Shown piece by piece: positions 15,407-62,432 of a DNA stretch of 64,000 nucleotides (the first letter of the stretch is position 1; the number at the start of each line of letters is the position of its first letter). The position numbers were made by a program, and so were the translations under genes. The notes beneath the pieces were generated by a model. It did no database searches, was not told the origin of the DNA, and worked only from the letters and a program-made list of their open reading frames with translations. The stretch is from a virus (Duplodnaviria > Caudoviricetes): the IMG/VR virus record IMGVR_UViG_3300046694_000619. One strand, written 5' to 3'.

Positions 15407-15417
15407 TTTCATTTCTT

Positions 15418-15837: not shown

Positions 15838-15848
15838 GACTGCAGCGG

Positions 15849-15925: not shown

Positions 15926-15988
15926 CTGCAGTCTCGGACAAAACGTTTTTTCAGTCAGGTTTTTCAATCAACCAACAGGAGCTTCGAT

Positions 15989-16240: not shown

Positions 16241-16268
16241 GGTTTCTCGTGTCGCAAGACACGCGATA

Positions 16269-16404
16269 GGTTTTGAATCGGCGGCGTGGATGGACACGCA
16301 GCAATCCGGACAAAGGCGAATACGACTAGCCAAGCCGGATTGTGTGGAAGTTGGCCAGTCGTGCTAGCACCAGCGGGTGTCGAAACCTGCACGTTTCAAA
16401 ACCA
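16269..16404 (+). ncRNA. tRNA-shell RNA with an internal pseudoknot
   Basis: Closing helix GGTTTTGAA/TTCAAAACC, GCGTG GATGGA CACGC hairpin, T-like hairpin, two crossing helices. Confidence 0.6.
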
Positions 16405-16407
16405 CAT

Positions 16408-16481
16408 GGGGGTGTAGCTCTAAGGTAGAGCGCCTGCTTTGCAAGCAGAGGGTCCGAATTCGATTTTCGGCGCCTCCACCA
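16408..16481 (+). tRNA. tRNA-Ala(TGC)
   Basis: G3:U70, TT TGC AA, CCA. Confidence 0.88.
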
Positions 16482-16489
16482 ATCTTCCT

Positions 16490-16619
16490 GGTGACGTAGC
16501 TCAGTCGGTAGAGCGCGGAATCCTGGGCCGGCTTCGCGTGGCGCTCCTTCGCTGCGCGGTGACTAATCGGCTCTTGGTTTGTTCCGAGGTCGGATGTTCG
16601 AACCATCCCGTCATCGCCA
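16490..16619 (+). ncRNA. tRNA-like RNA with the anticodon loop replaced by a ~60-nt hairpin
   Basis: Normal acceptor, D and T arms and CCA; CGGAA/TTCCG stem encloses a long insert. Confidence 0.75.
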
Positions 16620-16631
16620 AACACGTTGTAT

Positions 16632-16722
16632 GGAGAGTAAACCTGGCAGGGCCGGGCGCCGGTTGGAAGCCGGTCGGAGCGGCGAAAGCTGCTTGGGCTT
16701 CGAGTGCACCTACTCTCCGCCA
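16632..16722 (+). tRNA. 8/4-type tRNA-Ser(GGA)
   Basis: 8-bp acceptor; near-copy of 15232 with loop TT GGA AG. Confidence 0.82.
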
Positions 16723-16731
16723 TTCATTTTT

Positions 16732-16808
16732 GCTTCGGTAGCTCAGTCTGGTAGAGCGCTGCGTTGAAGGCGCAGGCGTCGTTGGTTCAATTCCAACCCG
16801 AAGCACCA
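16732..16808 (+). tRNA. tRNA-Phe(GAA)
   Basis: TT GAA GG, CCA. Confidence 0.9.
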
Positions 16809-16829
16809 CATACAGGAGGTTTTCTTCTC

Positions 16830-17027
16830 ATGGGAACGGTAAGCCTTCACGGCCTGCGTGTGCTACGCCTTGAAAGGGCGTTGCGTGCGAGAGGCGTAAA
16901 AGATGTGAAGCTGGTGGTCAACCCATCCGCTCACGTATCAAGAGACGCACTCACAGAGAGCGTTTGCCGGGTGCTCGAGGCCTACCTTGCGGGGAAGGTC
17001 ACGGCGCTACCGCGCGGCAGCTTCTGA
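16830..17027 (+). CDS. hypothetical protein
   Basis: AGGAGG RBS, 65 aa. Confidence 0.6.
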   Translation: MGTVSLHGLRVLRLERALRARGVKDVKLVVNPSAHVSRDALTESVCRVLEAYLAGKVTALPRGSF

Positions 17028-17234
17028 GTGCGTTTCTTGAGGTCATAAACCGGGGGCAAGATAGGGCCATCGCGCGAACCCGTCACGCGTCGAGTAGCTG
17101 GCGTAAGCAGCTAATACTTCTTCGAAACTCCTTCGGGGTGTGCTCCGCTCATGCGAGTCTGTGCACTCCAAAGCAGTTTTGATTGTCCGGCCGTCTTCTC
17201 TGGCAGCCAGGGCTGTGCGCTTGCGCACGACCAT

Positions 17235-17311
17235 CTCCGTGTAGCTCAGTCTGATAGAGCGCCTCGTTCGGGACGAGGAGGTCGCAGGTTTGAACCCTGT
17301 CTCGGAGACCA
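17235..17311 (+). tRNA. tRNA-Pro(CGG)
   Basis: TT CGG GA, CCA. Confidence 0.87.
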
Positions 17312-17380
17312 TTTTTGAGGGAAGCGTCGCGTGTCGACGCATGCGGCGCCCCAGCGCGTAATCTGGGGCAACGATTTCTT

Positions 17381-17470
17381 GGAGGGTGAACCAGACAGGG
17401 TTTGGGCTCGCCTGCTAAGCGAGGCGTTTGGCGAAAGCTGAATTCGGTTCGATACCGACTCCCTCCTCCA
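17381..17470 (+). tRNA. 8/4-type tRNA-Ser(GCT)
   Basis: 8-bp acceptor with one mismatch, 4-bp T stem TCGG/CCGA, long V arm, CT GCT AA. Confidence 0.82.
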
Positions 17471-17479
17471 GGTTTCAAT

Positions 17480-17554
17480 GCTCGTGTAGCGCAGTGGTAG
17501 CGCACCGCTTTCACACAGCGGGGGTCGCTGGTTCGATGCCAGCCTCGAGCACCA
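17480..17554 (+). tRNA. tRNA-Val(CAC)
   Basis: TT CAC AC, CCA. Confidence 0.9.
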
Positions 17555-17562
17555 GTTCAATT

Positions 17563-18303
17563 TCACCTCAGGAGCGACATGACGGATTTGTCAGCCCAGA
17601 GTTGCGCACACAAGGCTGCGCGGTCGGGGCGGACCGTGGAGTCCGACGGTGCCGCAGATTCGATTCGCTCCCGCAGCGCTGCCATTCGTTCGCGCACCAG
17701 TGCTTCGTCGGCAGGAACGTAGCGACCCTCAGCATCCGCCAGGGGCAGCAGGGCAATGGGCTCATCACCAAACAGGTCGGCAGCGATGTCCGCGACAAAG
17801 CGCTCGTTGCCGTCGTCAACCTCGACCCAATAGTGAGCGTGGCAGTTGCCCGCAGCATCGAAAAAGCCGGTGACTTCGCCGTCACCGGCACGAATGCAGG
17901 AGCTCATCTTCGGCAGGGATTTCTTGACCTGCAGGTCGGCGAGATAGGCGGCGAACGCACAGCTCCCAGCGACCTGACCCAAGAATCCAGATTCGCACGC
18001 GCGGTCGAGAGCGCCGATGGTCTTTGTCAGCGCCGCGTGCAACGCTATCGAACTCGCCTGGCGCCCTTCGCGAATGGTCGCGCCCGCGGCATCAATCTGA
18101 TTGCCAATCTCGCGGGAAACCTCTCGCGCGTCGAACGAATCCTTGGCAGCGAATTTCACCTTGACTGTCAAATCCTCGCCTACCGGGTACCAGCGCTCTT
18201 GAAATCGGATACGCGCGCCTGCATAGAGCGGGGCGCGGACGTGTGCGGTAAAAAGCCACTCTCCGTCAACGCGTGTGGTTGTCGAGGTTACGAAGTACGA
18301 CAT
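17563..18303 (-). CDS. hypothetical protein interrupting the tRNA array
   Basis: AGGAG RBS; GSC...HYWV...DIAADLF resembles a transglutaminase/papain-like Cys-His-Asp arrangement. Confidence 0.7.
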   Translation of the reverse strand: MSYFVTSTTTRVDGEWLFTAHVRAPLYAGARIRFQERWYPVGEDLTVKVKFAAKDSFDAREVSREIGNQIDAAGATIREGRQASSIALHAALTKTIGALDRACESGFLGQVAGSCAFAAYLADLQVKKSLPKMSSCIRAGDGEVTGFFDAAGNCHAHYWVEVDDGNERFVADIAADLFGDEPIALLPLADAEGRYVPADEALVRERMAALRERIESAAPSDSTVRPDRAALCAQLWADKSVMSLLR

Positions 18304-18376
18304 GATTTCTCCTGAAACATGTCCGTAGTATACAAAGTAATTTGCGTAGCGACAACTACGCAGAGAGTTGATGAAT

Positions 18377-18452
18377 GGGTACCTAGCTCAGTTGGAAGAG
18401 CATCGCCTCGACACGGCGAAGGTCGGCGGTTCGAACCCGTCGGTACCTACCA
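18377..18452 (+). tRNA. tRNA-Val(GAC) with C33
   Basis: TC GAC AC, CCA. Confidence 0.88.
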
Positions 18453-18460
18453 GTTTTGAT

Positions 18461-18539
18461 AGGGGAGTGGCGCCGAGCGGTCTAAGGCACCGGGTTCTGA
18501 CCCCGGGTTTCGCAGGTTCGAATCCTGCCTCCTCTTCCA
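18461..18539 (+). tRNA. tRNA-Gln(CTG)
   Basis: TT CTG AC, CCA. Confidence 0.85.
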
Positions 18540-18546
18540 GCTTTAC

Positions 18547-18625
18547 AGGCCCGTAGCTCAGGTGGATTGAGAGCGCGACACTACGAATGTCGAGGTCGGG
18601 GGTTCAAGTCCCTCCGGGTCTACCA
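18547..18625 (+). tRNA. tRNA-Arg(ACG)
   Basis: CT ACG AA, CCA. Confidence 0.9.
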
Positions 18626-18636
18626 TTAAAGCATAG

Positions 18637-18665
18637 TTGCCATTAAGCATTTTTAATGATATAAT
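18637..18665 (+). promoter_or_regulatory. internal sigma70 promoter
   Basis: TTGCCA-17-TATAAT with extended TG. Confidence 0.7.
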
Positions 18666-18689
18666 GCAAAGCATCAGTAGTGCACACCT

Positions 18690-18776
18690 GCCCAGGTGGC
18701 GGAATTGGTAGACGCGCAGCGTTGAGGTCGCTGTGTCCGAAAGGACGTGGGGGTTCGAGTCCCCCCTTGGGCACCA
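18690..18776 (+). tRNA. tRNA-Leu(GAG)
   Basis: class II, TT GAG GT, CCA. Confidence 0.93.
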
Positions 18777-18792
18777 TTTTTTGAGGTATGTC

Positions 18793-18993
18793 ATGGCCAA
18801 CGATGAAGTCGTCGTCGAGCTGAACTTCAATGCGGCACCGCCGCCGAAGTGCAAGCGATGCGGCCGCGACAAGGGAAGTCACAAAGCAGTGACGCTGCAT
18901 TGTCCGATTGGACGCGGCAATTTCCCTTCTTTCGCGATGGCCAAGCTATACGAGCCCCGCACGCCGCGCTTAAAGCGGTCAAAAGCGGGCTGA
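18793..18993 (+). CDS. small Cys/His-containing protein
   Basis: GAGG RBS; CKRCG...H......C. Confidence 0.55.
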   Translation: MANDEVVVELNFNAAPPPKCKRCGRDKGSHKAVTLHCPIGRGNFPSFAMAKLYEPRTPRLKRSKAG

Positions 18994-19004
18994 AGTAGTA
19001 CAAC

Positions 19005-19089
19005 GCTCCGAATGGCGGAATTGGTTAGACGCCTTGGTCGTACCAGGGACCGCAAGGTCGTGTGGGTTCGAATCCCGCTTCGGGCACCA
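19005..19089 (+). ncRNA. tRNA-Leu-like RNA lacking an anticodon loop
   Basis: Leu D arm, V arm, A73 and CCA present; anticodon arm is CTTGGT-CGT-ACCAGG. Confidence 0.75.
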
Positions 19090-19256
19090 GATTCATCTCT
19101 TTGTATGGCACTTGCGGCTATACCTGGGGATGATGTCGAGCCTTCTGGCTGTTAGACCTGCGCGACATAAAAGGAACTGCAGGCGAGTCATCCGCACTTT
19201 CAGTAGGAGTCGGCGGCAGGGGGAGTGCCTGCATCCTTTCAACAAGGTTTTTGAAC

Positions 19257-19532
19257 ATGCGCTCGTTGGTTTTCGCTTTTTTGGTTTCGTGCAGCCTCCC
19301 GCTCGCCGTCCTTGGATGCAGCAACGGGAATGCGGTCACGTCCCAGCACATTGCTTTGGCATCGGACAAGTGCGCGGCAAACGGTGGCCTGAAGCAGGTC
19401 GAGCGGGCCGACGCCACTCGCATGAGCGAGAGCTGCGGCTACAAGTGCAGTCGCTACACCGGTCAGATAGAGTACGAGGCCCAGTTCTCTTGCAAGAACG
19501 GCGCGCACTTCGACCTGACCTGGCAAGAATAA
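19257..19532 (+). CDS. putative lipoprotein
   Basis: Hydrophobic N-terminus with VLGC lipobox-like motif. Confidence 0.6.
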   Translation: MRSLVFAFLVSCSLPLAVLGCSNGNAVTSQHIALASDKCAANGGLKQVERADATRMSESCGYKCSRYTGQIEYEAQFSCKNGAHFDLTWQE

Positions 19533-19540
19533 GGAGCAGC

Positions 19541-19774
19541 ATGAGCGAGCGCAAGCAGGAGTGGCAGGCGTACCGCGTGCGCCGGTTCTTTCGGACGCGG
19601 CACTATGTGGCGTGTTGGATAAACGGTTATGAGTTCCTGTATGCCCATGCCGGCAAGCCTCGCTACTTCGCAGAAGCGGCTGACGCAATAAAGTTTGCTG
19701 AGTATCTGAGTCTGCCTGAAGCGGAGCGGCAGCTCATTGACTATGCGGAAGCCTACGGCGCGTTCTACGCGTAA
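19541..19774 (+). CDS. hypothetical protein
   Basis: AAGGAG RBS, MSERKQEW. Confidence 0.6.
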   Translation: MSERKQEWQAYRVRRFFRTRHYVACWINGYEFLYAHAGKPRYFAEAADAIKFAEYLSLPEAERQLIDYAEAYGAFYA

Positions 19775-19814
19775 GAGCGTTAAGCCTTCGACCGCAAGCG
19801 CACTAAAGATTCAA

Positions 19815-19900
19815 GCCCTTTTGGTGGAATGGAAGACACAGGAGATTCAAAATTTCCCGCCTTAAAAAGCGTGCCGGTTCGAGTCCGGCATAGGGCACCA
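19815..19900 (+). tRNA. tRNA-Leu(CAA)
   Basis: class II, TT CAA AA, CCA. Confidence 0.9.
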
Positions 19901-19910
19901 AGTTTAATAT

Positions 19911-19988
19911 CGGGGATTAATGTCAGTCCGGTAGACGGCCTGCTCCGGAAGCAGGAGGCCGCAGGTTCAAATCCTGCATCCCCGACCA
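19911..19988 (+). tRNA. tRNA-Pro(CGG) with C33 and A37
   Basis: TC CGG AA, CCA. Confidence 0.82.
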
Positions 19989-20147
19989 AATTTCGACCGC
20001 AGACTACGCGGTATCTCGCCGTCGTCCTGGGAAATCGCATCCGCGAAAGTACAATCGGCAGGGCTAGGAGCAGCGATGAAATAGCCGCCATCGCGCTCGA
20101 CGCAAGAGGCCGGGCTGGTGGAATGCCAGTCGCGAATGCAACACGAT

Positions 20148-20223
20148 GCGTCCGTAACTCAGTGGAAAGAGTGCCACCCTCCGAAGGTGGAAGCCGGCCG
20201 TTCGATTCGGTCCGGACGCGCCA
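20148..20223 (+). tRNA. tRNA-Arg(CCG)
   Basis: CT CCG AA, CCA. Confidence 0.9.
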
Positions 20224-20471
20224 GAACTCTGGCTCAGCCAAGATTTCGCTGGGCTGGTACGAGCACCAACCTCTCGGCCCCGGTCATCTATCGGGAAAGT
20301 ACTGGGAGGTCGTCTGCCCCGACGTGAGTTAAGTGGGCATGGCGCTCCATAGGAGCCCGCTGGGAAGCCATACCGCAGGTCGCCCCTGTGGCCAAAATCC
20401 CGGCACACAAGAGCTGTACGACAGAAGGGGCCGTTCGATTCATCGGACGGCCCCTTTTTGCATTCCGCGCT

Positions 20472-20559
20472 GCCTGCGTGGTGAAATTGGTAGACACACC
20501 TGGCTTAAGACCAGACGCTGCTAGTCAGCATAAGGGTTCGAGGCCCTTCGCAGGCACCA
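20472..20559 (+). tRNA. tRNA-Leu(TAA)
   Basis: class II, CT TAA GA, CCA. Confidence 0.9.
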
Positions 20560-26179: not shown

Positions 26180-26255
26180 GGGTCCTTAGCTCAGTTGGTA
26201 GAGCGGTTGCCTTACAAGCAATAGGTCGGCGGTTCGACCCCGTCAGGACCCACCA
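26180..26255 (+). tRNA. tRNA-Val(TAC)
   Basis: CT TAC AA, CCA. Confidence 0.93.
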
Positions 26256-26259
26256 CCTG

Positions 26260-26410
26260 AATCATGAGTTCTGCTGTCTGACGATGAAAGCGAGGCGGTG
26301 GCGCCGCTTGCCTCAGTAGTCGGCAGAAGTAACGCCAAGTTGACCGGACAGGGTTTCGCGACCAGACGCCGGCAAGCAACGGAGCTTCGTGGACGGCAGA
26401 ACTCATGATT
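26260..26410 (+). ncRNA. structured RNA of unknown family
   Basis: 19-bp closing helix AATCATGAGTTCTGCTGTC/GACGGCAGAACTCATGATT containing a G-U pair. Confidence 0.55.
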
Positions 26411-26535
26411 TAAAGGTTTTTTCGCGAAAAGAAAGGGGATTCCGGTGGTCCTACCGCGGTGGGGACTGTAAAAGCCGGGACGCGTCCGGGGTAAAACTCC
26501 ATACGCCGCAACAGTTTTGTTTTTGGAGCTCGGTT

Positions 26536-26652
26536 TTGCCAAAAGACCGCAGTTACTCTGACGATGCGCTGAAAGGTGCTATAGAAAAGGCTGTGTCTTG
26601 GACTCAAGTTTCAACGCTTTTGGGTCGCTTGTCGGATTTTCAGAAGTTGTAG
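26536..26652 (+). pseudogene. possible remnant of an HNH homing-endonuclease N-terminus
   Basis: RSYSDDALKGAIEKAVSWTQVSTLLG then an early stop. Confidence 0.35.
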
Positions 26653-26657
26653 TTCAT

Positions 26658-26776
26658 GGTCATCTAGCTTAATGGCAGAGCGCCGCAGTAGGGCTGCACC
26701 CCGTTCGATTCGGGTGAGAGAATGGTTCGCGTAAGTCCGCATGCGGAGGAGTGGTTCGAAACCAAAATGACCTCCA
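26658..26776 (+). ncRNA. tRNA-like RNA with expanded anticodon arm
   Basis: GGTCAT/ATGACC + TCCA, D arm TAGCTTAATGGCAGAGC, CCGCA/TGCGG stem enclosing ~50 nt including a second GTTCGAT loop. Confidence 0.6.
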
Positions 26777-26801
26777 GGTTTTATGCGGTACAGCAGTATT
26801 C

Positions 26802-26877
26802 GGGGGCTTAGCTCAGTTGGGAGAGCATCTGCTTTGCAAGCAGAGGGTCATCGGTTCGAACCCGATAGCCTCCACCA
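26802..26877 (+). tRNA. tRNA-Ala(TGC)
   Basis: G3:U70, CCA. Confidence 0.94.
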
Positions 26878-31519: not shown

Positions 31520-32710
31520 CTTCTGGGGGAATCACGGCTAGGTAGGTAGGACCTACGATGACGTGCGCTGGCAGGTGGAAAGCATGGGCCTTGGCCCCTC
31601 TGCAACCCGAAGTTGTCCGGAAACACAGGCCGGACTGAGCAAGCATACCGACTTGCAACTGTGGTTCCCCGAGAAGAGAGAGTTTTGCATCGGTAAGTGT
31701 CTCCATGTAGCCGATGGGTTCGCGTTGCACCTGCGTCTTCCTTCGGGCGGATGTGGGCTCAGCTTCTGCCTTCGGGTGGAAGTCGGCTCCGCGAGCTGTC
31801 TATGGAGAAAACATCCCGCCTGGGGGAGACAGCCGTAGCGATACGGTCAAAGCGAGGTAGCCCACTAACTCGCGCCAAGCCTGGCCTGCACTTCGGTGCG
31901 GGTGAGGATGGTCAATCCAGGCAAGCCTCCTCGACCTCGCAAGGGGTTCGTCATCGACCAGCGGTGGCGATAAGGATGAAGCATGTGGCTGGGAAAGAAC
32001 GTTGGCCGACAAGCCCAAAGTGCCCTTCGGGGGCTGCGGGGAACTTGGGTCGACGAACAGCAGCGGGTGGTGCCGCGGTCCAGCCTTAACCAACGTGCGA
32101 ATCTGTACGGGAAAGGGTAGCGCTGTTGTCGTAGATGCCCTCAATGGCGACAGCGCAGTTCCAGGGGTAATGGGTTCGTTGCAAAACGCGCCCGGAGTCC
32201 TGAAGAACCGTCGAGTATCCGGCAGGAAAAAGACATGATGCGGGTGACATTGGGATGGTCAAAAGCCATTTCAGTCACGGACACGCCCGTATCGGTGGGT
32301 TGCAACTAGCTCAATTGGATAGAGCAACGGCCTTGAAAGCCGTGGGTTGAAGGTTCAATTCCTTCGTTCACTAAAACGCAAAGTCGTGTCCGGCATTTCG
32401 CAACAGTGGCTTAATCCTGTCCGGGGAACCCCGAAGGCAGGCGCCTGAAATCCGCAAGATGGAGGGTGTTGATTGGATTCCGCACGTAGAGGCTGCAACC
32501 TCGAACGGCTCGCAAGGTCGGCGGTAGGAAGAGAATCGAGTAGCGAGATGCGACAGGGAGAGTTCGCCAGCCCTGGGGTAACCCGAAAGACGGCAGCCAT
32601 GGCGCTAAACCGGGCTTGAGCTCGGTGGATACAGGAGGCAAGGTGGGCCGCAAGCTCACTATAATCCTCCTAAGTGGAGCGTCGATTCCGGCTGTAATCT
32701 CAGGCCTGAA
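31520..32710 (+). ncRNA. large GOLLD-like ncRNA, boundaries approximate
   Basis: 1.2 kb without a credible ORF, many GNRA/UUCG hairpins, embedded tRNA module, 3' end GCTGTAATCTCAGGC as I recall for GOLLD; tRNA-array context. Confidence 0.6.
32300..32372 (+). tRNA. tRNA module (anticodon TGA) embedded in the large RNA, defective acceptor stem
   Basis: D, anticodon (ACGGC CT TGA AA GCCGT) and T arms intact; only ~3 acceptor pairs, no CCA. Confidence 0.55.
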
Positions 32711-32975: not shown

Positions 32976-33062
32976 GGAGAGGTGGCAGAGCGGTCAAATG
33001 CGCTGTCTTGGAAAGGCAGAGTCGGAAACGGCACCTGGGTTCGAACCCCAGTCTCTCCGCCA
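32976..33062 (+). tRNA. tRNA-Ser(GGA), canonical 7/5
   Basis: TT GGA AA, V arm, G73, CCA. Confidence 0.92.
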
Positions 33063-33219
33063 GCTATACCCCATCATGTATCCACTAACTAACGAGGTCG
33101 ATGCTTGATGAAAAAGAATACAGTACTGCCAGGTTTTCACCACGAAGGATGGGACCTGTGATGCAGCGAAAAGAATTAGCCCGTTTCGCCCGTGAAGGCT
33201 GGGACGGTTGACTGTTTTT

Positions 33220-33295
33220 GGCGGGGTGGCGCAGTTGGTAGCGCACGGGGCTCATAACCCTGGGGTCGATGGTTCGAATCCATCTCCCGCAACCA
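33220..33295 (+). tRNA. tRNA-fMet(CAT)
   Basis: 1:72 mismatch, three G-C pairs in the anticodon stem, CCA. Confidence 0.88.
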
Positions 33296-33304
33296 GTTTT
33301 TGCA

Positions 33305-33475
33305 GTGGGAAGGAGCAGACCGCAGCCTATGCGTGCGGGATGACAGGCCCCGCTCGGACGCATGAAGTTGGGTGCGGAGAGTCGACGGACTGAGCATAAA
33401 CGGAGTCGAGGGTAAGGCCGCGGACGTGTGATGTAGGGCACGAGAGCGGTTCCGAGGTTACGACACCGGCCCACA
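33305..33475 (+). ncRNA. structured RNA, family A copy 2
   Basis: AGGAGCAGA...AAACGGAGT..GGGTA...ACACCGGCC as in 26888-27086. Confidence 0.5.
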
Positions 33476-33526
33476 GCAGATTCACCATTTTCAAGAGCGG
33501 CACTTGTGCGGCTCGAGTAGTTCAAT

Positions 33527-33604
33527 GGCGGGGTAGCTCAGCCTGGTAGAGCGACAGCCTCATAAGCTGAATGTCGTTGGTTCGAATCCAACCCACCGCA
33601 ACCA
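33527..33604 (+). tRNA. tRNA-Met(CAT) with initiator-like acceptor end
   Basis: CT CAT AA, ...CCGCAACCA end, bulged acceptor. Confidence 0.82.
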
Positions 33605-33917
33605 GTTACCCGGGTGTCCTGGCCCGTAATTTACCAGGCTCGGCACTCCTGCCGGCCTACCGTTGGCTATGGAGCGGAACCTGCGGTATATCGGGGGCAA
33701 CCTCGGTAAGCCATCCCGAAAGGGATTCCGACAGGAGTAACGCAGGCAGCTTGGTGTGAGCTGAAACGCAAAGGATAGCGTATCTGTTGAGCCTCCCGGG
33801 GAGGCTCTTCGTGAGCGCCGCACATCTGACTGGTAAAGCGCCCACGTGCCAGCTGTTGGTAGCAGCGTGGCACACCGATTTTCAGGAGTGGCTTTCGAGC
33901 GACTCCAGCAGCTCGAT

Positions 33918-33995
33918 AGCGGGGTAGAGCAGTCCGGTAGCTCGTCGGCCTCATAAGCCGAAGGTCATGGGTTCAAATCCCATCCGCCGCAACCA
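33918..33995 (+). tRNA. tRNA-Met(CAT), fMet-like D arm
   Basis: GAGCAGTCCGGTAGCTC, CT CAT AA, bulged acceptor, CCA. Confidence 0.85.
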
Positions 33996-34186
33996 AACGT
34001 AGGTCGTTGTGAATGCAACGATTGAAAGACAATCCGGCCACGCTTGCCATCTTCACAAGGGATGGCGTGCCTTAAGAGGCAGCGCATCTGAAATCGCGGA
34101 TTTACGCGTGAACCCCAGGGACGCCTGGGTCTACGGAACAAGGTGGTCGCAAGACCATCGGCGAGGGGATAACCTTTGCCACCCTT

Positions 34187-34262
<76 letters not shown>

Positions 34263-34595
34263 AATTACTCCGGCCTGGCAGTGTCACCGCATAAGAGGAC
34301 AGGTGTTCCTCTGGACGATTTTCGTGCTGCCAGCCCCGAGTGATTTCAGCAGGAAATGCACGGGCGACGTGCAAGAAAGGACGGAGTGTCCTGGCAGTGA
34401 GAACTGACCAGCTGTTGCGATGAGAGGTCGCAAGACTTTTTCGGTTCGAAAGTAGCATCGGGCCGTCCAAAACCGAAATGCCGGGTTCGCATCCGGCTCC
34501 TGTCGATGTCACGCGAATTGACTGCTCCAAAACGTGGGACCCGGTCTCCATGGATGTGGCGAAGTATCGGGCTTTGAGCAGTCTTTTCGCAGGAT

Positions 34596-34672
34596 GGTGA
34601 TGTAGCTCAGCTGGTCAGAGCGTTGCACTCATAATGCAGAGGTCGTCGGTTCGAGCCCGACCATCACTACCA
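34596..34672 (+). tRNA. tRNA with CAT anticodon (Ile2 or elongator Met)
   Basis: CT CAT AA, CCA. Confidence 0.88.
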
Positions 34673-34680
34673 GTTTCAAT

Positions 34681-34768
34681 GCGGTGGACCTTCGGGTCTA
34701 ACGTCAATCAGCGGCCTAGGATAACGCCTGATTGTCGAGCGCCGGCGTAATGGCTGGACACCGCTCCA
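34681..34768 (+). ncRNA. CCA-ended three-hairpin RNA (tRNA/Y-RNA-like)
   Basis: GCGGTG/CACCGC + TCCA, UUCG hairpin, CAATCAG/CTGATTG stem. Confidence 0.45.
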
Positions 34769-34816
34769 TATCCGAGAGAGCCCGCTACATGCGGGCTTTC
34801 CCATATCAGCAACGCC

Positions 34817-35275
34817 ATGCATTCGACGACCGATAAACGACCACTGAACGTGCGTGAGTTGCGCACCAAGCTGAAGATGCTGCGGCAGTATCAGGCGCGC
34901 AGCTGCCGGTTCGAGACGGTGTCATACTACTGCCCGAGGCATCCTGTATTCGAGGACTTCTTCCGGCTGCTGGCTGAGCATGACTGGTTCAGTGACGACT
35001 ACCGATGGTGCCGTGCACAGTACCAAGGGGACAGGGCCGCGTACGAAAATGCCATCGACGAAGCCAACGCATACTGGAACCCGAAGGCGGTCTTGTGCCG
35101 ACAGCCGACGTACAAAGAAGCGCTGCAGTGTGCCCGGTTCATTTACAGGTGCGGCCGCATCATGGAAGGCTCGCCTTGGCTGCGGGCATTGTCGATGGGT
35201 GTCGTGCAGTGGATTATGGATGGCATCATCGAGGGTCCTGCTGATTGCGGGCAGCACGCGCAAGCCGAGCAATAG
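34817..35275 (+). CDS. hypothetical protein
   Basis: 152-aa ORF. Confidence 0.6.
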   Translation: MHSTTDKRPLNVRELRTKLKMLRQYQARSCRFETVSYYCPRHPVFEDFFRLLAEHDWFSDDYRWCRAQYQGDRAAYENAIDEANAYWNPKAVLCRQPTYKEALQCARFIYRCGRIMEGSPWLRALSMGVVQWIMDGIIEGPADCGQHAQAEQ

Positions 35276-35330
35276 TGGCTTCGTAGACTGTCGGTCGTCG
35301 GCAACAACGATGCTTAACAGGCTAAGCATT

Positions 35331-35600
35331 TTAGCTCCATCGTTGTAGACCGCGTTCAGGTGGCGGCCTTGATTTGCTGTGCTGCGAGCGGCGCCATCTT
35401 TGTTTGGACTGCCAGTCCTCTGCGCGAAGCACGTATTCCCCGTCTTCGCGGGCTTCGGCTTCCGAGCCGAATCCTTCCTCGCTGAAGGCGACGACTTTGA
35501 TGCCTGTGCCAGTCGACCTCTCGATGGTAATGCCCCAGTGCCACTCGCCTTCCTGCTCGAAGACGTGAAGCGTCGGGTCCGACGACGCGAGCGCGGCCAT
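35331..35600 (-). CDS. hypothetical protein
   Basis: AAGGAG RBS; WHWGI...VVAFSEEGF.SE.EA. Confidence 0.65.
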   Translation of the reverse strand: MAALASSDPTLHVFEQEGEWHWGITIERSTGTGIKVVAFSEEGFGSEAEAREDGEYVLRAEDWQSKQRWRRSQHSKSRPPPERGLQRWS

Positions 35601-35710
35601 GGTCAACTCCTTTCAATAGCGGTTCCTCCGTGAGCCGTCCGCATGGCAACGGATGGTGCACGAATTGTCAGTGCTAGCAGTGGCCTGATACCGCTCCTGT
35701 GGCGTTGTTG

Positions 35711-36031
35711 CTAGGTGCGCGTAGACCTCGACGACTGCTGTATGTGCGCGGAGCTGGAGAACGCCTGTGCAGGACACGGCGCCGGCGGCGATTCAAGGGC
35801 GTCGTCGGCCTCCAGAACGACAACTTCGAGGAATTCAAGCGGTACCCGGTCAAGCCGTTCTGGCCGTCGTTCACCATCCGGCGGGAATTCCACGCAAGCA
35901 TGAGATGCCTTCGGGGTATGCGCTACGACTTGCCCGATACGCCCTCGAAACCGGCTTGCTGAATGGTCATCGAGCGCGCTCAGGCGGGAAGCGGTAAGTC
36001 TTACGAACATGCCTTTCAGGCGTTGCCTCAT
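35711..36031 (-). CDS. hypothetical protein
   Basis: GAGGAGG RBS before MRQRLKG. Confidence 0.6.
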   Translation of the reverse strand: MRQRLKGMFVRLTASRLSALDDHSASRFRGRIGQVVAHTPKASHACVEFPPDGERRPERLDRVPLEFLEVVVLEADDALESPPAPCPAQAFSSSAHIQQSSRSTRT

Positions 36032-36278
36032 ATGTACCTCCTCACTTAAAAGCATTTGTTCAGAGGATAGAAAAGGGTCGTGTGAAGCGCAAGGAAAAGA
36101 AGGCGCAGCGGTACACAATACGGATGCGAGCGTAAAGGACGAATTTTTTACAACCTAGCAACATTGAAGGAGCTTCGAGATGGTTCTCAGGCAGGCATCG
36201 GTCATACGACCGGCCGTCAGCGCTTAAGAGTGCAGGAGGGTCCTGCACAGCTGGCGGTCGACACTCTTCGGAGTCTGT

Positions 36279-36506
36279 ATGACCAAGCCCATGACCCGCG
36301 CCCTTCGGCGTCATCATATTGCGCGCCTCAAGCGCGCCCGCCGGTTCTACTTCGGTAAGGACCTGGCGAAAGACCCGGTCGACCTCGGTATTACCGTGAC
36401 GACCGCCGCGCGCTGTTCGTGCGCAATGTGCGGAAATCCTCGTCGCATTTTCCTCGAGCTCACGATGCAGGAACGTCGTCTGTTTCAGGACATCGGTGAA
36501 GATTGA
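36279..36506 (+). CDS. small basic Cys-motif protein
   Basis: RALRRHHIARLKRAR...CSCAMCGNPRR. Confidence 0.7.
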   Translation: MTKPMTRALRRHHIARLKRARRFYFGKDLAKDPVDLGITVTTAARCSCAMCGNPRRIFLELTMQERRLFQDIGED

Positions 36507-36646
36507 GAGCCGAAACGCATATTCTCAACGCGCTGTTGCGAATATGCGTTAAAAACACTATACTGTGTTTGTGTTGGTGGCGGGAGCCGGACAGCAACGG
36601 CCCGCCGCGACGGCGAAGTATCAAGCCCTGCTGATGCAGTACATTA

Positions 36647-36721
36647 GCCCTTGTAGCTCAGTGGCAGAGCACTCCCTTGGTAAGGGAGAGGCCGACAGTT
36701 CAATCCTGTCCAGGGGCACCA
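36647..36721 (+). tRNA. tRNA-Thr(GGT)
   Basis: TT GGT AA, CCA. Confidence 0.93.
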
Positions 36722-36735
36722 GAATTTCGATTCAT

Positions 36736-36811
36736 GCCGGTGTAGCTCAGTTGGTAGAGCAACGCACTCGTAACGCGTAGGTCGGAGGTTCGAATCCTCT
36801 CTCCGGCACCA
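36736..36811 (+). tRNA. tRNA-Thr(CGT)
   Basis: CT CGT AA, CCA. Confidence 0.92.
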
Positions 36812-36830
36812 GATTTCCTACATTTTCATC

Positions 36831-37235
36831 ATGACTGCAGACACGACGACGGCGGTGTACGCGCTTCGAGAGCAGGTCACCGACCGCACCGCGGGCTATG
36901 CCGTACGGCATCCGCAGTCGGGCGCGCTCGTGTCCAATCGCAGTTTCGATAACGGCTATTGCGTCCAGCCGCTGACGTTCCCGCGCGACGAGGCTGAGGC
37001 CCATCTGGCGGAGCTCACAGCGGAAACCCGCGTCACCTGGATGCTCGAGCTGGCACCCGGTCCGTGTCCCGCATGCAAGCGCGTCATCTGGGCTGACGAC
37101 CTTGACTTCTGCTACCCGCTGAACCGGGAACGCACACTCTACCGCGCCGGCTGCAACAAGCATGACTTCGGTTGCGGGCTAGAGGTCGAAAGCGATTCTT
37201 TCGAAGGTGCCATCAGGCGCTGGAACGGGCAGTAG
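36831..37235 (+). CDS. hypothetical protein with C-terminal Zn-ribbon-like motif
   Basis: PCPAC...GC......GCG........AIRRWN. Confidence 0.7.
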   Translation: MTADTTTAVYALREQVTDRTAGYAVRHPQSGALVSNRSFDNGYCVQPLTFPRDEAEAHLAELTAETRVTWMLELAPGPCPACKRVIWADDLDFCYPLNRERTLYRAGCNKHDFGCGLEVESDSFEGAIRRWNGQ

Positions 37236-37255
37236 CTCAGCTCATCTGTCTTCAC

Positions 37256-37331
37256 GCGCCTGTAGTTCAACGGATAGAACAGTGGTCTTCTACACCATAG
37301 GTTGGGGGTTCAAATCCCTCCGGGCGCGCCA
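37256..37331 (+). tRNA. tRNA-Arg(TCT)
   Basis: CT TCT AC, CCA. Confidence 0.9.
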
Positions 37332-38211: not shown

Positions 38212-38718
38212 ATGGTAAATCTCGACGACTGCTACATCAATCTCGACCTGGATGGTGTCATGGTCGACTTCTACGGGGAAACCTCCCGCATTCTGGGCGC
38301 GAACTACAAGAGCCTGCCTTCCGCGCAAGCGTGGAGTGTGCTCGAGAAGATTCCGCATTTCTTCGAAAAACTGCCGATGCTCCCCGATGCACTCGAACTC
38401 TGGAAGGGACTCGAGGGTCGTGGGCGTCCGTCTCGTGTCCTGACCGCGGTTCCGAAGCCAACGGGCCTGCTCAATACGGCGCCCGGCGACAAACGCATCT
38501 GGGTGCGCGAGAACATCAGCCAGACCGTCCCGGTGCTGATTGCGCCGCACGGCGCTGCGAAGGCGGAGTGGGCCCGGCCGGGCCACATCCTCATCGACGA
38601 CCTTCAGCGCAACATCGACGCCTGGGTCGCCGCTGGCGGCATTGGCATCCTGCATCGCAGCGCGCGTGAGACACTCGAGCAGCTCGATGAGCACGCGCCG
38701 CTGCTGCAGGCGGCCTGA
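38212..38718 (+). CDS. HAD-family 5'(3')-deoxyribonucleotidase-like protein
   Basis: DLDGVMVDF, ILIDD...NI..W..AGGIGILH. Confidence 0.85.
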   Translation: MVNLDDCYINLDLDGVMVDFYGETSRILGANYKSLPSAQAWSVLEKIPHFFEKLPMLPDALELWKGLEGRGRPSRVLTAVPKPTGLLNTAPGDKRIWVRENISQTVPVLIAPHGAAKAEWARPGHILIDDLQRNIDAWVAAGGIGILHRSARETLEQLDEHAPLLQAA

Positions 38719-39132: not shown

Positions 39133-39333
39133 GATGTACCTCAAAATGGATTTGGCACTCACTGACACGTACACTCGAACAAGGGGATACCCAGCGGTTT
39201 CCTCGAATTCGTATAGCTCAGAGAGTGCCCATCGCAGAGGTAACAACCGCGCAGGTCTGCCACATTTCGGATATTGCATTCAGAGGGGTCTAACGCGTTA
39301 ATGCTGTTTTATGATATAATGCAACTTCAGTGA

Positions 39334-39628
39334 GTCAGACTCATGGGCGGTAGGCTTAGAAGCAGCCAGCGGCGTGAAAACCCGCGTACCGATAATGAGT
39401 GGTGATAGGCGCGTGTGACCGTGGAACTGTTCACCCTGATGAACACCACAGACCCGTGAGATTCGCGGGCACTGGAAGCAGGGCGAGGATGGCAGATACC
39501 GAAGGACTGATGCTGCATGGACGTGGAGCGGCATCGGAGAAGGCAAGCCATCAGGAAAAAAGGTTGCGAGGGCGTTGTCCCCTGAAATGACCAATAACCT
39601 TTGGCGTGAAAGCACACCTGGGTTTGAC
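39334..39628 (+). ncRNA. RNA containing a split mimic of the 23S rRNA L11-binding domain (H43/H44)
   Basis: GGCTTAGAAGCAGCCA and GCGTGAAAGCACAC closed by GTCAGACTCA/TGGGTTTGAC; extended -10 promoter at 39312-39320. Confidence 0.7.
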
Positions 39629-39709
39629 CTGCTGACGCCCTGGACTCGCGGGCGTTAAAACGAGGAGGGAGTCCGGTGGAAGCCCGGCACCGAATACACG
39701 GAGAAGCCA

Positions 39710-40048
39710 ATGGCTGAGAATTTTGATACCACGCCGTACTACCGCAAGCTGGCCAGCAATGAGCCTCTCACCGAGGACGAAATCGTCTCGCTGCTAAAGG
39801 CTGTGGATTCGTTTCGAAACGCGACCGCCTATCTGGCGGACTGCCATGCCGCAACGCTCGAGAGCATGCCGCGTTCTGCGTCCAAGTCCGCGCGTACGCG
39901 CATGGAATCCATCTGCAAGACGTCGGCCGAGCTGCTCGACGGCGGCTACAACCCGTTGACTCATCGCTCCACGCCCGACGCCGCGCAGAAGCGCTGTTTG
40001 CGAGTCATCGAAGAAAGCAAGGCGCTCGTCGGGCCGGTCGGTACCTGA
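39710..40048 (+). CDS. hypothetical protein
   Basis: GGAG RBS, 112 aa. Confidence 0.7.
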   Translation: MAENFDTTPYYRKLASNEPLTEDEIVSLLKAVDSFRNATAYLADCHAATLESMPRSASKSARTRMESICKTSAELLDGGYNPLTHRSTPDAAQKRCLRVIEESKALVGPVGT

Positions 40049-40619: not shown

Positions 40620-41066
40620 ATGACCACATTGCTCGAACGCATCCGCCAGGACTCCCTGGCTGCCCGCAAAGCGCGGGAATCGAACAAGGCGCTATTCCTG
40701 ACGACGCTGTTGTCGGAAGCCGGCCGTGTCGGTAAGGACGATGGCAACCGCGAGTCGACCGACGCGGAAGTTACCGCGACCATAAAAAAGTTCATTAAGA
40801 ACACCGACGAAACGCTGCGCGTGCTGCCGGCTGGTTCGGCCGCTCGAGTGCAACCCGAAGCCGAGCTGGCCATCCTGAATGCCTACCTTCCGCGCCAGGC
40901 GAGCGAAGATGAAGTGCGCGCCGCCGTGGCCCGTTACGTCGCCGAGCTCGCCGAGCGCAACCCGAAGCAGATGGGTGTTGTGATGGGCAAGCTCAATGCC
41001 GAGTTCGAAGGCAACTTCGACAAGGGGGTTGCGAGCAAGCTGGTCAAGGAAGCGCTCGCAGGCTAA
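40620..41066 (+). CDS. GatB/YqeY domain protein
   Basis: E..IL..YLP.Q..E.E, K.MG.VMG.L, 148 aa. Confidence 0.88.
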   Translation: MTTLLERIRQDSLAARKARESNKALFLTTLLSEAGRVGKDDGNRESTDAEVTATIKKFIKNTDETLRVLPAGSAARVQPEAELAILNAYLPRQASEDEVRAAVARYVAELAERNPKQMGVVMGKLNAEFEGNFDKGVASKLVKEALAG

Positions 41067-45797: not shown

Positions 45798-45947
45798 GTT
45801 GGCCTCGGGTTGCCTCAGCAACAAAAGGGGTTGGAATCGCACTAATATAGCATCAAATATGCTATATGCCAACTTCCCCTAGGTGATTGCCCTTTCCCGC
45901 TATACGTGGAGAGGCAATACCGCCCGGACAACCTGAATGGAATCAAC

Positions 45948-46964
45948 ATGACCAAACCGCATCCGATGGAGCAATTCCACGACCTCGTACGCCGTATCCT
46001 GACCGATGGTGTGCGAGAGCAAAACCGAACCGGCATCGACACGTTGTCGATTCCCTGTGCGGTACTCAAGTTCGACATGGCAGACGGCTTCCCCGCCATC
46101 ACGACCAAAAAGCTCGCTTTCAGGTCGGCCGTTGGCGAATGGGTTGGCTTCGTCCGCGGCTACATCAGCGCGGCACAATTCCGTGAGCTGAATTGCAAAG
46201 TTTGGGACGGAAATGCCAACTCTACGCAGAGCTGGCTCGATAATCCCAAGCGAAAAGGCGAGGATGACCTCGGTCGCATCTATTCGAAGCAATGGACCGA
46301 CTGGCGTGACTGGAAGCACACGCGGTCTTGCCAGGATGCGAAAGCATTGGTCGAAAAGGGCTACGAAATCATCGTCTGGGACGCTGAAGACGACAATTAC
46401 GTTTTGCGTCGAGGCATCAACCAGCTCGAGGAAGTGCTCAAGACACTTCTGACCAACCCGTCTGACCGGCGCAAGGTTGTAACGGGCTGGCGTCCCGACG
46501 AGTGGTCGGAGGCTGCACTTCCGAGCTGCCATACCGAGTACGTCTGGAAAACTGAGATGGGCGCAACCCGAGGCGTTGATGGAACACCGGTCACGTACAA
46601 GGAAGGTACGCGCGGCCGGCTGCACCTGTCGATGCAGATGCGCAGCTATGACGTCGGGCTGGGTTTCAATCCGGCGTTAGCCGGGTTAATGCTCTCCGTC
46701 ATGGCCAAGCTCTCGGGCTTTGAGCCCGGCGAAATCGTGATGAGCATCAACGATGCTCACGCTTATTGGGGACATATCACGGGGCTGAAGGAGCTCATTT
46801 CACGCGAGCACTATCCGCAACCCACGCTGCATCTGGGGGACAGCATTCCGACGCTCACCGATGTGAGCCAGGTGAAGGGCGTGTTCGAGCGTATCCAACC
46901 TGAGGATATTCAGCTGGTCGGCTACAAGCACCACCCGCCAATCAAGATGGACATGGCGGTTTAA
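45948..46964 (+). CDS. thyA: thymidylate synthase
   Basis: NRTGID, FP.ITTKK, DLG.IY..QW, RR, LPSCH, RS.D..LG, DAH.Y..H. Confidence 0.9.
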   Translation: MTKPHPMEQFHDLVRRILTDGVREQNRTGIDTLSIPCAVLKFDMADGFPAITTKKLAFRSAVGEWVGFVRGYISAAQFRELNCKVWDGNANSTQSWLDNPKRKGEDDLGRIYSKQWTDWRDWKHTRSCQDAKALVEKGYEIIVWDAEDDNYVLRRGINQLEEVLKTLLTNPSDRRKVVTGWRPDEWSEAALPSCHTEYVWKTEMGATRGVDGTPVTYKEGTRGRLHLSMQMRSYDVGLGFNPALAGLMLSVMAKLSGFEPGEIVMSINDAHAYWGHITGLKELISREHYPQPTLHLGDSIPTLTDVSQVKGVFERIQPEDIQLVGYKHHPPIKMDMAV

Positions 46965-59265: not shown

Positions 59266-60498
59266 TCAGACCTCACCTTCGTTCCAGTCAGCGTGGTGGT
59301 ACCTTTCGGTAGCATCGTGTCGCGAGTTGGCTTCGCTATGCAGATATATGCTGGTTGTGGAAATCGAGTTGTGACCAAAGTTGTCACGCACGAACCGCAA
59401 GTCGATGTGGTCGGCCATTTGAGTGCCAGCAGTGTGACGCATCCAGTGAGCGGACGCACGCTCGACCCCCGCCGCGAGCGCCTCGCTTTCCGGACCTGGC
59501 GTTTGCCGCACACGCGCCGCTGTGCGATGGAAGACCTCCTTGATTATCCGATGCAACGCTCCGCGGGTGAGCGGTCGCCCCTTATCTTGTGCTATGACCG
59601 GTAGAACCAGCGGACGAACAGGCTCTCCCGCGCGCGGCAAAGGCGGAAGGTCATTGGCAATCCGATAGCGTTTGAGTTCCGTCATCATCTCGGAAGTGGC
59701 AGGAACATCGCGCGTCTTGCCACCTTTACCAGTCACCTTGAGCCACCAACGTTCGATACCTTTTGAGTCTCGTCGACCGAAGAGGGAGCCCATGGTGGCA
59801 CCCGTAACTTCCGACGCGCGCAGACCCCCGATGTACAACACCGTGAAAAGCCATCGACAACGCGCTGCGTGAAGGCGCTCGCGTTGGGTGGTAACTGGCA
59901 TCTGCTCGATAGTGGTCTTCACGAGAAGCCACATCTCGGTACTCAGAAACCGCTCGACGCGAGGCGGCTCTTCACGCTCCCGCGGCACCAGTGCGAAGGG
60001 GTTACGATTGAGATACCCCGCATTTTGAAGCCATTTAAAGCAGGTACTCAGTACCACATGCGCATATTCAACGCTGTTTGACGACAGCGTCCCCGCGAAT
60101 GGTCGCCAGTCTGCGTGCCCGCGCGGCAATTTCTTCTTGCCCTTCAGCATCCATCGCTCTCTGGGCTGCGGGTCCGCCAGAAAGTGCCGATAGGCCACCA
60201 GGTCTTCATGCGTGAGCGACGAAAGTGGCTTTCCCCGCTCAATCACAGCCCATAGGAGGAACCGCTCGGCCTCGCGACGATAGGCATCCAGGGTAGCCGG
60301 CCGTTTCAGATAGTTCGTCAGCCACGCCACAACGGCCGAGATGTCATCCTTCGCAGTGAGCTGCAAATCTTCCAACGGCGCGCGGTTTTTACCTTCAACT
60401 CCCGACAGGGCGCGGGGAAGCCTCAGTTGCTCGAGCGGTACCGGTACAGAAGGCGCGGCAATGGGCTGCGGCAATTGCGATGAGAGTTCGTGGCTCAT
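59266..60498 (-). CDS. tyrosine recombinase / resolvase
   Basis: GLRASE, GKGGK.R, HWMRH, FGH..ISTT..Y. Confidence 0.93.
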   Translation of the reverse strand: MSHELSSQLPQPIAAPSVPVPLEQLRLPRALSGVEGKNRAPLEDLQLTAKDDISAVVAWLTNYLKRPATLDAYRREAERFLLWAVIERGKPLSSLTHEDLVAYRHFLADPQPRERWMLKGKKKLPRGHADWRPFAGTLSSNSVEYAHVVLSTCFKWLQNAGYLNRNPFALVPREREEPPRVERFLSTEMWLLVKTTIEQMPVTTQRERLHAARCRWLFTVLYIGGLRASEVTGATMGSLFGRRDSKGIERWWLKVTGKGGKTRDVPATSEMMTELKRYRIANDLPPLPRAGEPVRPLVLPVIAQDKGRPLTRGALHRIIKEVFHRTAARVRQTPGPESEALAAGVERASAHWMRHTAGTQMADHIDLRFVRDNFGHNSISTTSIYLHSEANSRHDATERYHHADWNEGEV

Positions 60499-60658
60499 TT
60501 GAGGACCGACAGTCGTGGGCGAGGCATTTTCCAAAATAGGTAGCCAAATTGTACAACAAGTTACCTAATAACCCTTATGTCTAAACTCTCGCTATTTTTT
60601 CAGGATAACCTATGTATTACGTAGTAATATTTGAATAAATCACTCTCCGCCTTCCGAA

Positions 60659-61690: not shown

Positions 61691-62185
61691 GCGACCACGC
61701 AAAGAACAAAAAACCGCTCTACATGAGAGCGGTCGGGAGGGGCTTATTGCTTAGAAGTCCGCCGTGTGCGTGACCTGCGCGCCATTCGTCTCGGCAAGCA
61801 TCACGGTTATCTCGTGTCTCTTTTTCTCAGGCACCTTCCAGAACGCGGCAGCCTTCTTCTGTGCATCGTAGCTGGTGTCTGCTTGAATTTCGGTGCGGCG
61901 ACCCTTGTGAAATGCGACGTATCCGTTCATGGCGTATGTATCCTCAGAATGTCAGCGAAATTGCGACATTCCGTATAGCGCGCCGCCGGCCGCGAAGATG
62001 CTCGCCCGCTCTCGACTCCTGGCTGCCCAATCGCAAGGCCTGAGTTTCACCATCTTCCATGCACGCATCGAGGAAGAGGGTGAGGGAGCGACGCTCGCCT
62101 GGAAACAGGGTTACACAGATTATTCGATTACAGGATTACCGGGCGCCGCATTCTCAAAAACTCGCCACTACCAATTCTGTTTTCG

Positions 62186-62290
62186 AGTGTGGATACCCAA
62201 ATAGCGTGGGTGGACGACAAGTATTCCGTGTGTGGGGGACCAGTGTGGGCGTGTGTGACCGACAAGTTTTCCGTGTGTGGACGACAAGCG
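62186..62290 (+). repeat. iteron-like direct repeats upstream of rep
   Basis: CGACAAGT(A/T)TTCCGTGTGTGG twice plus partial GTGTGG copies. Confidence 0.55.
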
Positions 62291-62432
62291 GCCGAATCAT
62301 GCCCTGCTGTGTTGCCCGACCCATATGCCACTCGTTAAGAAGGGAATTCCCGATTCGCGTCATCGTCTCAAGACGTGTCATTATCGCTATTTTATGGTAT
62401 AATGTGGGTATCCACTTAAAGAAGTGCCCGCA

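Follow-up and report, generated by a model that had tools for sequence, protein, structure and literature searches.

The GTPase-associated centre (GAC) of 23S rRNA is the ribosomal contact site of EF-G, EF-Tu, IF2, RF3 and RelA-dependent signalling and a target of thiopeptide antibiotics. Two of its adenines, A1067 and A1095, mark the thiostrepton and factor site. The C-terminal domain of uL11 contacts nucleotides 1058-1060, 1062-1065, 1075-1083 and 1088, and thiopeptides bind at A1067 and A1095 (PMC1802607); Tre23, a T6SS ADP-ribosyltransferase toxin, modifies H44 at 1095-1098 (PMC8661411). Among the closest described RNAs are the leaders of ribosomal protein mRNAs, such as the L10 leader (RF00557; PMC7247131), which likewise imitate a protein-binding site of rRNA, in the case of the L10 leader one in the same region. 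These leaders act in cis and resemble rRNA loosely (PMC7247131), whereas the RNA reported here is encoded by a gene of its own, nearly matches rRNA in sequence, mostly has tRNA genes around it and adjoins no ribosomal protein gene. GOLLD and ROOL are likewise large structured RNAs of unknown function found in tRNA-rich regions of mobile elements, but the GAC mimic matches neither in sequence or model. To our knowledge, neither GOLLD nor ROOL copies an rRNA domain.

The earlier note on this DNA had suggested a comparison with Rfam. In Rfam 15 no family was placed on the region at gathering thresholds or at E values up to 10, and ribosomal-protein leader families gave no match at E up to 10. A full-text literature search returned no description of a GAC-mimic RNA family, and none is mentioned in a survey of viral structured RNAs from 2023. 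Across Rfam 15 and the full-text literature we also found no functional rRNA domain described as a free-standing copy encoded in trans.

An RNA whose two ends resemble the 23S GAC

The window (the whole stretch of DNA that was analysed, 64,000 nt) carries at 39334-39628 on the + strand what its sequence identifies as a non-coding RNA of ~300 nt, whose two ends would rebuild the 23S GAC, E. coli 1051-1108 (Table 1). E. coli numbering and identities are those of rrlH in NC_000913.3. As the earlier note had stated, GGCTTAGAAGCAGCCA at 39353-39368 is an exact copy of E. coli 23S 1062-1077 in H43. Its 15-mer occurs once in the window, where ~1e-4 exact matches are expected from base count, and shuffled sequence gives 2.3 matches when up to 3 mismatches are allowed. 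The H44 half, GCGTGAAAGCACAC at 39604-39617, shares 11 of 14 nucleotides with E. coli 1091-1104; it retains both pairs named earlier for their part in base triples, G1091-C1100 and C1092-G1099, along with G1093.A1098. The gap between the two halves is 235 nt, also as claimed, and the predicted 10-bp closing helix (39334-39343 with 39619-39628) is contiguous and covaries in relatives. Beyond a bulged U39344 the helix continues through G39345-C39618 and G39346-C39617, which correspond to 1054:1105 and 1055:1104, to give an H42 of 12 bp. The extent originally proposed, 39312-39628, needs one correction: the RNA ends do rebuild the GAC, but the RNA proper begins at ~39328-39334, and 39312-39320 belongs to the promoter.

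Three pieces add to the first description, namely the lower H43 stem, an extra hairpin at 39369-39385 and a 1082-1090 segment at 39392-39400. When both insertions are spliced out, the GAC core equals E. coli 1051-1108 at 39 of 58 positions, and 12 of the 19 differences are the two sides of compensatory pairs (1053:1106, 1054:1105, 1057:1081, 1058:1080, 1082:1086 and 1090:1101). In H43 the 3-bp lower stem (1057-59/1079-81), which compensatory C-G and G-C pairs maintain in the window copy, is followed by an upper stem of 4 bp and by UAGAAGC, a 7-nt loop that contains A1067. Every H44 pair is present (G1087-C1102, 1090:1101, G1091-C1100, C1092-G1099, G1093.A1098), but the loop reads UGAA, with G at 1095. 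All nucleotides of the tertiary fold are there: U1060, A1088, G1071, C1072, G1056.A1103, G1091-C1100 and C1092-G1099. Identities are thus kept for the predicted contacts U1060-A1088 and 1082:1086 and for putative docking of G1071/C1072 on 1091-1100/1092-1099.

Table 1. Features of the RNA locus, RNA-library contigs covering it and genes of the carrier element. Positions are those of the window; helices are predicted.
Feature	Position	Strand	Remarks
Extended -10 promoter	39312..39320	+	TGATATAAT; read from sequence, conserved in relatives
H42 mimic, 5' strand	39334..39346	+	pairs with 39617-39628, U39344 bulged; own pairing and RNAalifold
H43 mimic	39348..39391	+	lower stem 39348-39350 with 39389-39391; A1067 at 39358
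H43 top hairpin	39353-39367	+	exact E. coli 1062-1076
Extra hairpin, 17 nt, between 1077 and 1078	39369..39385	+	without counterpart in rRNA
1082-1086 turn (A:U), then G1087, A1088, G1089, U1090	39392..39400	+	turn at 39392-39396, rest at 39397-39400
Inserted domain, 203 nt, between 1090 and 1091	39401..39603	+	RNAalifold on 6 and on 11 sequences
Insert basal helix	39401-39406 with 39594-39599	+	predicted in the window copy from the family-wide rule
Insert hairpins	39421-39449, 39453-39469	+	RNAalifold
Insert long arm	39488-39552	+	RNAalifold
UUUG linker	39600-39603	+	end of insert; follows the family-wide rule
H44 mimic	39604..39616	+	GCG-UGAA-AGC, 39604-39613 = 1091-1100; then A1101, C1102, A1103; G39608 at 1095
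H42 mimic, 3' strand	39617..39628	+	RNAalifold and per-sequence strands
Post-RNA hairpin	39635..39655	+	6-bp stem, 9-nt loop, without U tract
Next ORF	39710-40048	+	without Pfam or PHROG family
RNA-library contig X19, 266 nt	39357-39618		
RNA-library contig X20, 305 nt	39360-39664		
RNA-library contig X21, 324 nt	39340-39615		
RNA-library contig X22, 393 nt	39345-39582		
TrwB/TraD-type coupling protein	8149-9984		E 1e-109
Deoxyribonucleotidase	38212-38718		
YqeY protein	40620-41066		1 kb downstream of the RNA
Thymidylate synthase	45906-46964		
Tyrosine recombinase	59266-60534		
TrfA-like replication protein	62059-63711		

Compared with the 58-nt fragment of 23S rRNA that binds uL11 and thiostrepton, the mimic has the same secondary structure, the same H43 sequence at 1062-1077 and the same tertiary-contact nucleotides. 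It differs in being free-standing, encoded by a mobile element with its own promoter and closed by an H42 of non-rRNA sequence; in carrying the 203-nt domain at 1090/1091 and the 17-nt hairpin at 1077/1078; and in having G at 1095 and A:U rather than U:A at 1082:1086. A 23S rRNA gene or gene fragment was rejected: the Rfam scan found no rRNA match anywhere in the window, LSU rRNA included, in line with the earlier statement that no other rRNA lies nearby, and H42 and the flanks are non-rRNA sequence that covaries freely.

Unconstrained minimum free energy folding and two-sequence alifold folds did not recover H43, and the comparative fold is preferred. RNAalifold recovers H42, with compensatory changes at most of its pairs, and each insert helix shows compensatory pairs. 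The stem of the extra hairpin is preserved in relatives through G-C to G-U and A-U changes, and the changes seen there in RNA-library relatives (39382, 39385) are wobble-compatible. Three ORFs overlapping the RNA, 39327-39710 (-), 39298-39615 (-) and 39399-39590 (+), were rejected as genes because they have no Pfam family and indels in relatives are not multiples of three. A group I intron in a mimic of rRNA exons was likewise dismissed, with no Rfam intron match at E up to 10 and inserts in the family down to 41 nt.

Some details of the insert are set down here as observations. A small hairpin at 39472-39481, CUG-GAAG-CAG, resembles the H43 loop sequence minus one base, flanks included, and is conserved in 9 of 11 relatives. 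The long arm contains a conserved, purine-rich asymmetric internal loop (39499-39506 with 39538-39543, GAAGGA opposite AGAA) that may, judged by eye, be a protein-binding motif of the kink-turn or loop-E-like kind. A likeness of 39496-39506 to the sarcin-ricin loop was likewise a by-eye impression, and we make no claim on either.

Relatives on viral contigs and in metagenomes

Viral contigs were searched for the H43 15-mer, which returned at least 120 loci. About 30 of the listed loci are coincidences within coding sequence, and most of the remaining ones read like the entire 5' half of the GAC and then depart from rRNA. A script then searched downstream of each match for an H44-like hairpin and, behind it, a strand able to pair with the sequence preceding H43, and found the H44 half together with complementary H42 at 78 of 121 sites among the matches listed, against ~6 expected by chance from the information content of the pattern. 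When 1079-1090 also had to be located, at least 73 members were left, measuring 109-414 nt and comprising at least 68 distinct sequences. Both halves are thus kept in at least 68 distinct relatives on viral contigs and in 10 close relatives from metagenomes. The earlier note had expected the halves to co-occur in homologs, and they are present together in every relative examined, which, along with the rebuilt 58-nt GAC and its tertiary-fold nucleotides, bears out the idea of a stand-alone GAC mimic.

Canonical GAC pairs were counted by script in the family and in the close relatives. Among the 68 distinct members in the matches listed, nearly every H42 pair occurs as all four Watson-Crick types, 1057:1081 is AU or CG, 1058:1080 is UA, GC, AU or CG, and the tertiary pair 1082:1086 is UA in 38, CG in 20 and AU in 5. 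Position 1095, which was in no search pattern, is A in 67 of these 68 members, and this invariance indicates selection on the ligand-facing surface beyond the fold. Every member has its insert at the 1090/1091 junction, where it opens with a helix; UUUG links the 3' strand of this helix to G1091. Insert length varies between 41 and 350 nt and little sequence is shared from one subfamily to another, whereas the GAC part hardly changes. Of the 68 distinct members among the matches listed, 13 have an insertion of 19-57 nt at 1077/1078 and 55 lack one. The window copy has the same layout, with 5' and 3' halves on one strand and a UUUG-terminated insert at 1090/1091.

Most family members sit within tRNA arrays, and when 12 family loci were scanned with Rfam, tRNAs were the only matches, 87 in all, surrounding the mimic. 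Members occur in gut, lake, marine and soil contigs. The family is carried by big phages and, at the window locus, by a conjugative plasmid-like element, and its carriers are rich in tRNA genes; it is widespread, and we could not find it described. The window copy therefore extends the family from phages to plasmid-like elements.

On one viral contig (L069, 5137-5470) two H43 motifs lie 318 nt apart, and at least the second belongs to a complete member, which suggests tandem paralogous copies. A scan of genomes with the H44 half gave two true members in 120 loci, the rest being chance matches. These two are on contigs classed as bacterial genomes: L249, from the cultured isolate Clostridiaceae bacterium strain 9 (QXXE01000019.1), and L266, from a Ruminococcus MAG.

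Closer relatives were sought through the insert. The viral-contig locus L032 has 74% identity over 282 nt of the RNA, and two more viral-contig scans with insert motifs gave chance matches only, apart from L032. A metagenome scan that used a motif of the insert's 3' end returned 10 loci, and all have the exact H43 sequence, which was absent from the pattern; the H43 loop, A1067 included, is thus invariant in 10 relatives found via the insert alone. On an alignment of 11 sequences RNAalifold predicts 75 pairs, 28 with at least one compensatory change, and these cover H42, the extra hairpin and every insert helix. The program misses the short H43 stems; by script count all canonical GAC pairs are kept, and 1082:1086 covaries within close relatives too. 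Among the 11 aligned sequences G1095 occurs in the window copy and L215 only, with A in the other 9, and L209 and L218 have U at 1098. As G1095 and U1098 occur in two sequences each, the H44 loop, with GAAA, AAAU, AACA and AGUA among its variants in the subfamily, is the least constrained part of the core in the window lineage.

Promoter, RNA-library contigs and carrier element

The extended -10 element reported earlier just upstream of the RNA, TGATATAAT at 39312-39320, recurs in L209, L215 and L218 without change in spacing, and as the variant TGGTATAAT in L213 at the matching distance. From this element transcription is predicted to start at ~39327-39330. In L217 a canonical terminator directly follows H42, and in L210 two tRNAs flank the RNA, which is preceded by the 3' CCA end of the first and followed by the start of the second. 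Because the -10 element is conserved in some relatives and L210 sits between tRNA genes, the family appears to use either its own promoter or tRNA-type processing. We conclude that the locus is a gene for a stable non-coding RNA of ~300 nt under its own extended -10 promoter, with transcription hinted at by RNA libraries.

The stretch is present in 18 rhizosphere or root DNA runs, and parts of it are present in six RNA runs. In four RNA libraries, each from a different study, a single short contig falls on the RNA; identities of 90-97% mark these contigs as coming from relatives. For the transcript proposed in the earlier note, the coverage by short contigs from four RNA libraries is a hint and not a proof, since such libraries may contain DNA and the contigs show neither ends nor strand; contig ends are not to be equated with RNA ends. 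In X19, X21 and X22 no contig covers the flanks of the RNA, which is not readable as absence of transcription. Three of the four contigs end before ORF 39710-40048, and none reaches it. In X21 and X22, A39392>T is paired with T39396>A, which swaps 1082:1086 from A:U to U:A. The window copy thus supplies both a promoter and a hint of expression for the family.

The Rfam scan places ~47 tRNA genes in the window, all on the + strand, in three blocks (12047-20556, 26180-26874 and 32976-37328), with at least four copies of tRNA-Met (CAT). A GOLLD RNA lies at 32237-32706 (154.6 bits, gathering score 150), 7 kb upstream of the mimic, and includes a tRNA-like match at 32304-32368. The best relatives of the coupling protein, at 54% identity, are on 800-kb Variovorax megaplasmids. 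No phage structural family was matched in a PHROGs scan of 20 window ORFs; a PHROG match named terminase was set aside as merely the ATPase motif of the coupling protein. Relatives L215 and L214 are on contigs of 248 and 508 kb, and both have tRNA genes of similar kind and order ~2 kb upstream of their copy of the RNA. Given the coupling protein, the TrfA-like protein, the lack of phage structural ORFs in that scan and the Variovorax megaplasmid and 248- and 508-kb relatives, we interpret the carrier as a conjugative megaplasmid or ICE from a rhizosphere proteobacterium, not a phage. GOLLD accordingly sits here on an element with conjugation and plasmid-replication genes rather than phage genes. 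Searches of the window by tblastn with E. coli uL11, uL1, uL10 and bL12 gave nothing below E 0.2, and with no uL11, uL10 or bL12 gene on the element any such partner would be the host's.

Candidate functions and an element downstream of the RNA

The reading we prefer, at a probability of roughly 0.45, is that the RNA acts off the ribosome as a mimic of the GAC, with a host ribosomal protein as its most likely partner. Its 5' and 3' ends would join to rebuild the 58-nt GAC (the end of H42, H43 and H44), with the 203-nt domain looped out, and the surface so formed would be presented to host uL11 and/or the uL10-bL12 stalk base and, via them, to translation GTPases. Host proteins that bind the GAC would thereby be titrated or recruited. 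The likeness in sequence and fold, the family, the covariation and the presence in RNA libraries are observed; each binding step and the physiological effect are inferred. The setting is related to translation, with the tRNA genes and GOLLD upstream and YqeY downstream. Two points weigh against simple uL11 binding, although not decisively: the extra hairpin falls inside 1075-1083, a stretch contacted by the uL11 C-terminal domain (PMC1802607), and the window copy has G at 1095, one of the two adenine sites. Titration of abundant ribosomal proteins would also demand very abundant RNA, and the benefit to a plasmid is not obvious.

The GAC fold could instead be reused for its structure: self-folding and compact, it would clamp shut a larger RNA whose inserted domain does the work, by forming RNA-only assemblies as in GOLLD and ROOL or by binding an unrelated partner. 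The insert is conserved within the subfamily and folds well, each helix showing compensatory pairs, and the nearby GOLLD belongs with ROOL to RNAs that form RNA-only multimers (PMC12286853). Across subfamilies, however, inserts are dissimilar while the GAC part stays nearly invariant, exposed A1095 included, and a plain clamp would not require exposed loop bases. Since the core is kept beyond what a helix clamp needs (A1095, the A1067 loop) while the insert ranges so widely in length, selection on the GAC surface is favoured, and we consider such reuse unlikely. Control in cis would make the RNA the 5' UTR of ORF 39710-40048 and have it act through a ribosomal protein, like the L10 leader. The ORF does lie within 80 nt of the RNA, with the same arrangement in L215, L218 and L209, but relatives have unrelated neighbours, which makes this role very improbable: the L210 RNA is flanked by tRNA genes, L217 has its terminator, the surroundings of L032, L211, L212 and L214 differ, and most members are in tRNA arrays. 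The searches with uL11, uL1, uL10 and bL12 found no ribosomal protein gene in the window, the ORF is without a recognised family, and the RNA-library contigs stop short of it. A chance resemblance, or the decayed fragment of a captured rRNA gene, has the likeness itself in its favour and nothing more. Against it stand the tiny number of 15-mer matches expected per window, flanks that are not rRNA, and halves, closing helix and insertion site conserved with covariation in dozens of diverged relatives; this conservation and covariation exclude it.

A free copy of the GAC could also serve as a decoy: by sequestering a GAC-directed toxin or antibiotic, for instance a Tre23-type ADP-ribosyltransferase or a thiopeptide, it would protect the ribosomes of the carrier cell. 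The tRNA arrays of mobile elements are commonly interpreted as spares for components of translation that come under attack, and a decoy would fit this established idea. The element inhabits the rhizosphere, where GAC-directed weapons are common, and the H44 loop, the most variable part of the core in the subfamily, falls where Tre23 acts (1095-1098; PMC8661411) and includes one of the thiopeptide sites, A1067/A1095 (PMC1802607). No toxin or immunity gene was linked to the RNA at the locus, though, G1095 would weaken the bait for agents that read A1095, and occurrence in gut, lake, marine and soil contigs makes it unlikely that a single toxin class accounts for the family. Overall we judge a decoy improbable.

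Mimicry off the ribosome can be carried further, tentatively and with more doubt than belief on our part. Mobile elements that carry tRNAs may also carry a free "stalk base", in which the RNA together with host uL11 and uL10-(bL12)n would form a ribosome-independent particle. Such a particle, in the same doubtful reading, would capture translation GTPases or RelA, or shield the real GAC. If this is true, translation in the carrier cell would be reprogrammed or protected, and with the RNA a trans-acting copy of a functional rRNA domain would be known for the first time. More generally, mobile-element RNAs that copy the GAC down to exposed loop bases would imply an unknown way of manipulating or protecting translation. 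The natural variants, with a hairpin in the uL11 footprint and G1095, are ready-made mutants for binding tests.

Directly after the RNA lies an element of 58 nt (39636-39693) whose counterpart, at 84.5% identity, is intergenic in 39 temperate phages of Pseudomonas, among them D3, PAJU2, PMG1 and Marin, and is also found in 3 P. aeruginosa plasmid records. In blastn comparisons with phage records and with plasmids, these 58 nt were the sole match of the region. The element has two hairpins, the second of which (39673-39687) has the loop UGGAAGC, one base off the H43 loop UAGAAGC. The hairpin at 39635-39655 shows one compensatory pair relative to Pseudomonas phage Marin and could act as a structure at the 3' end. 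In the window and in the phages alike, the element is followed by an ORF with a GGAG ribosome-binding site, and in the Pseudomonas phages the element is upstream of tRNA genes as placed by Rfam, a placement that differs from the record annotation. In phage Marin (L001, OR683406.1) the tRNAs are annotated at 1442-1678 and placed by Rfam at 1787-2026, ~345 nt downstream, and the deposited tRNA coordinates look shifted.
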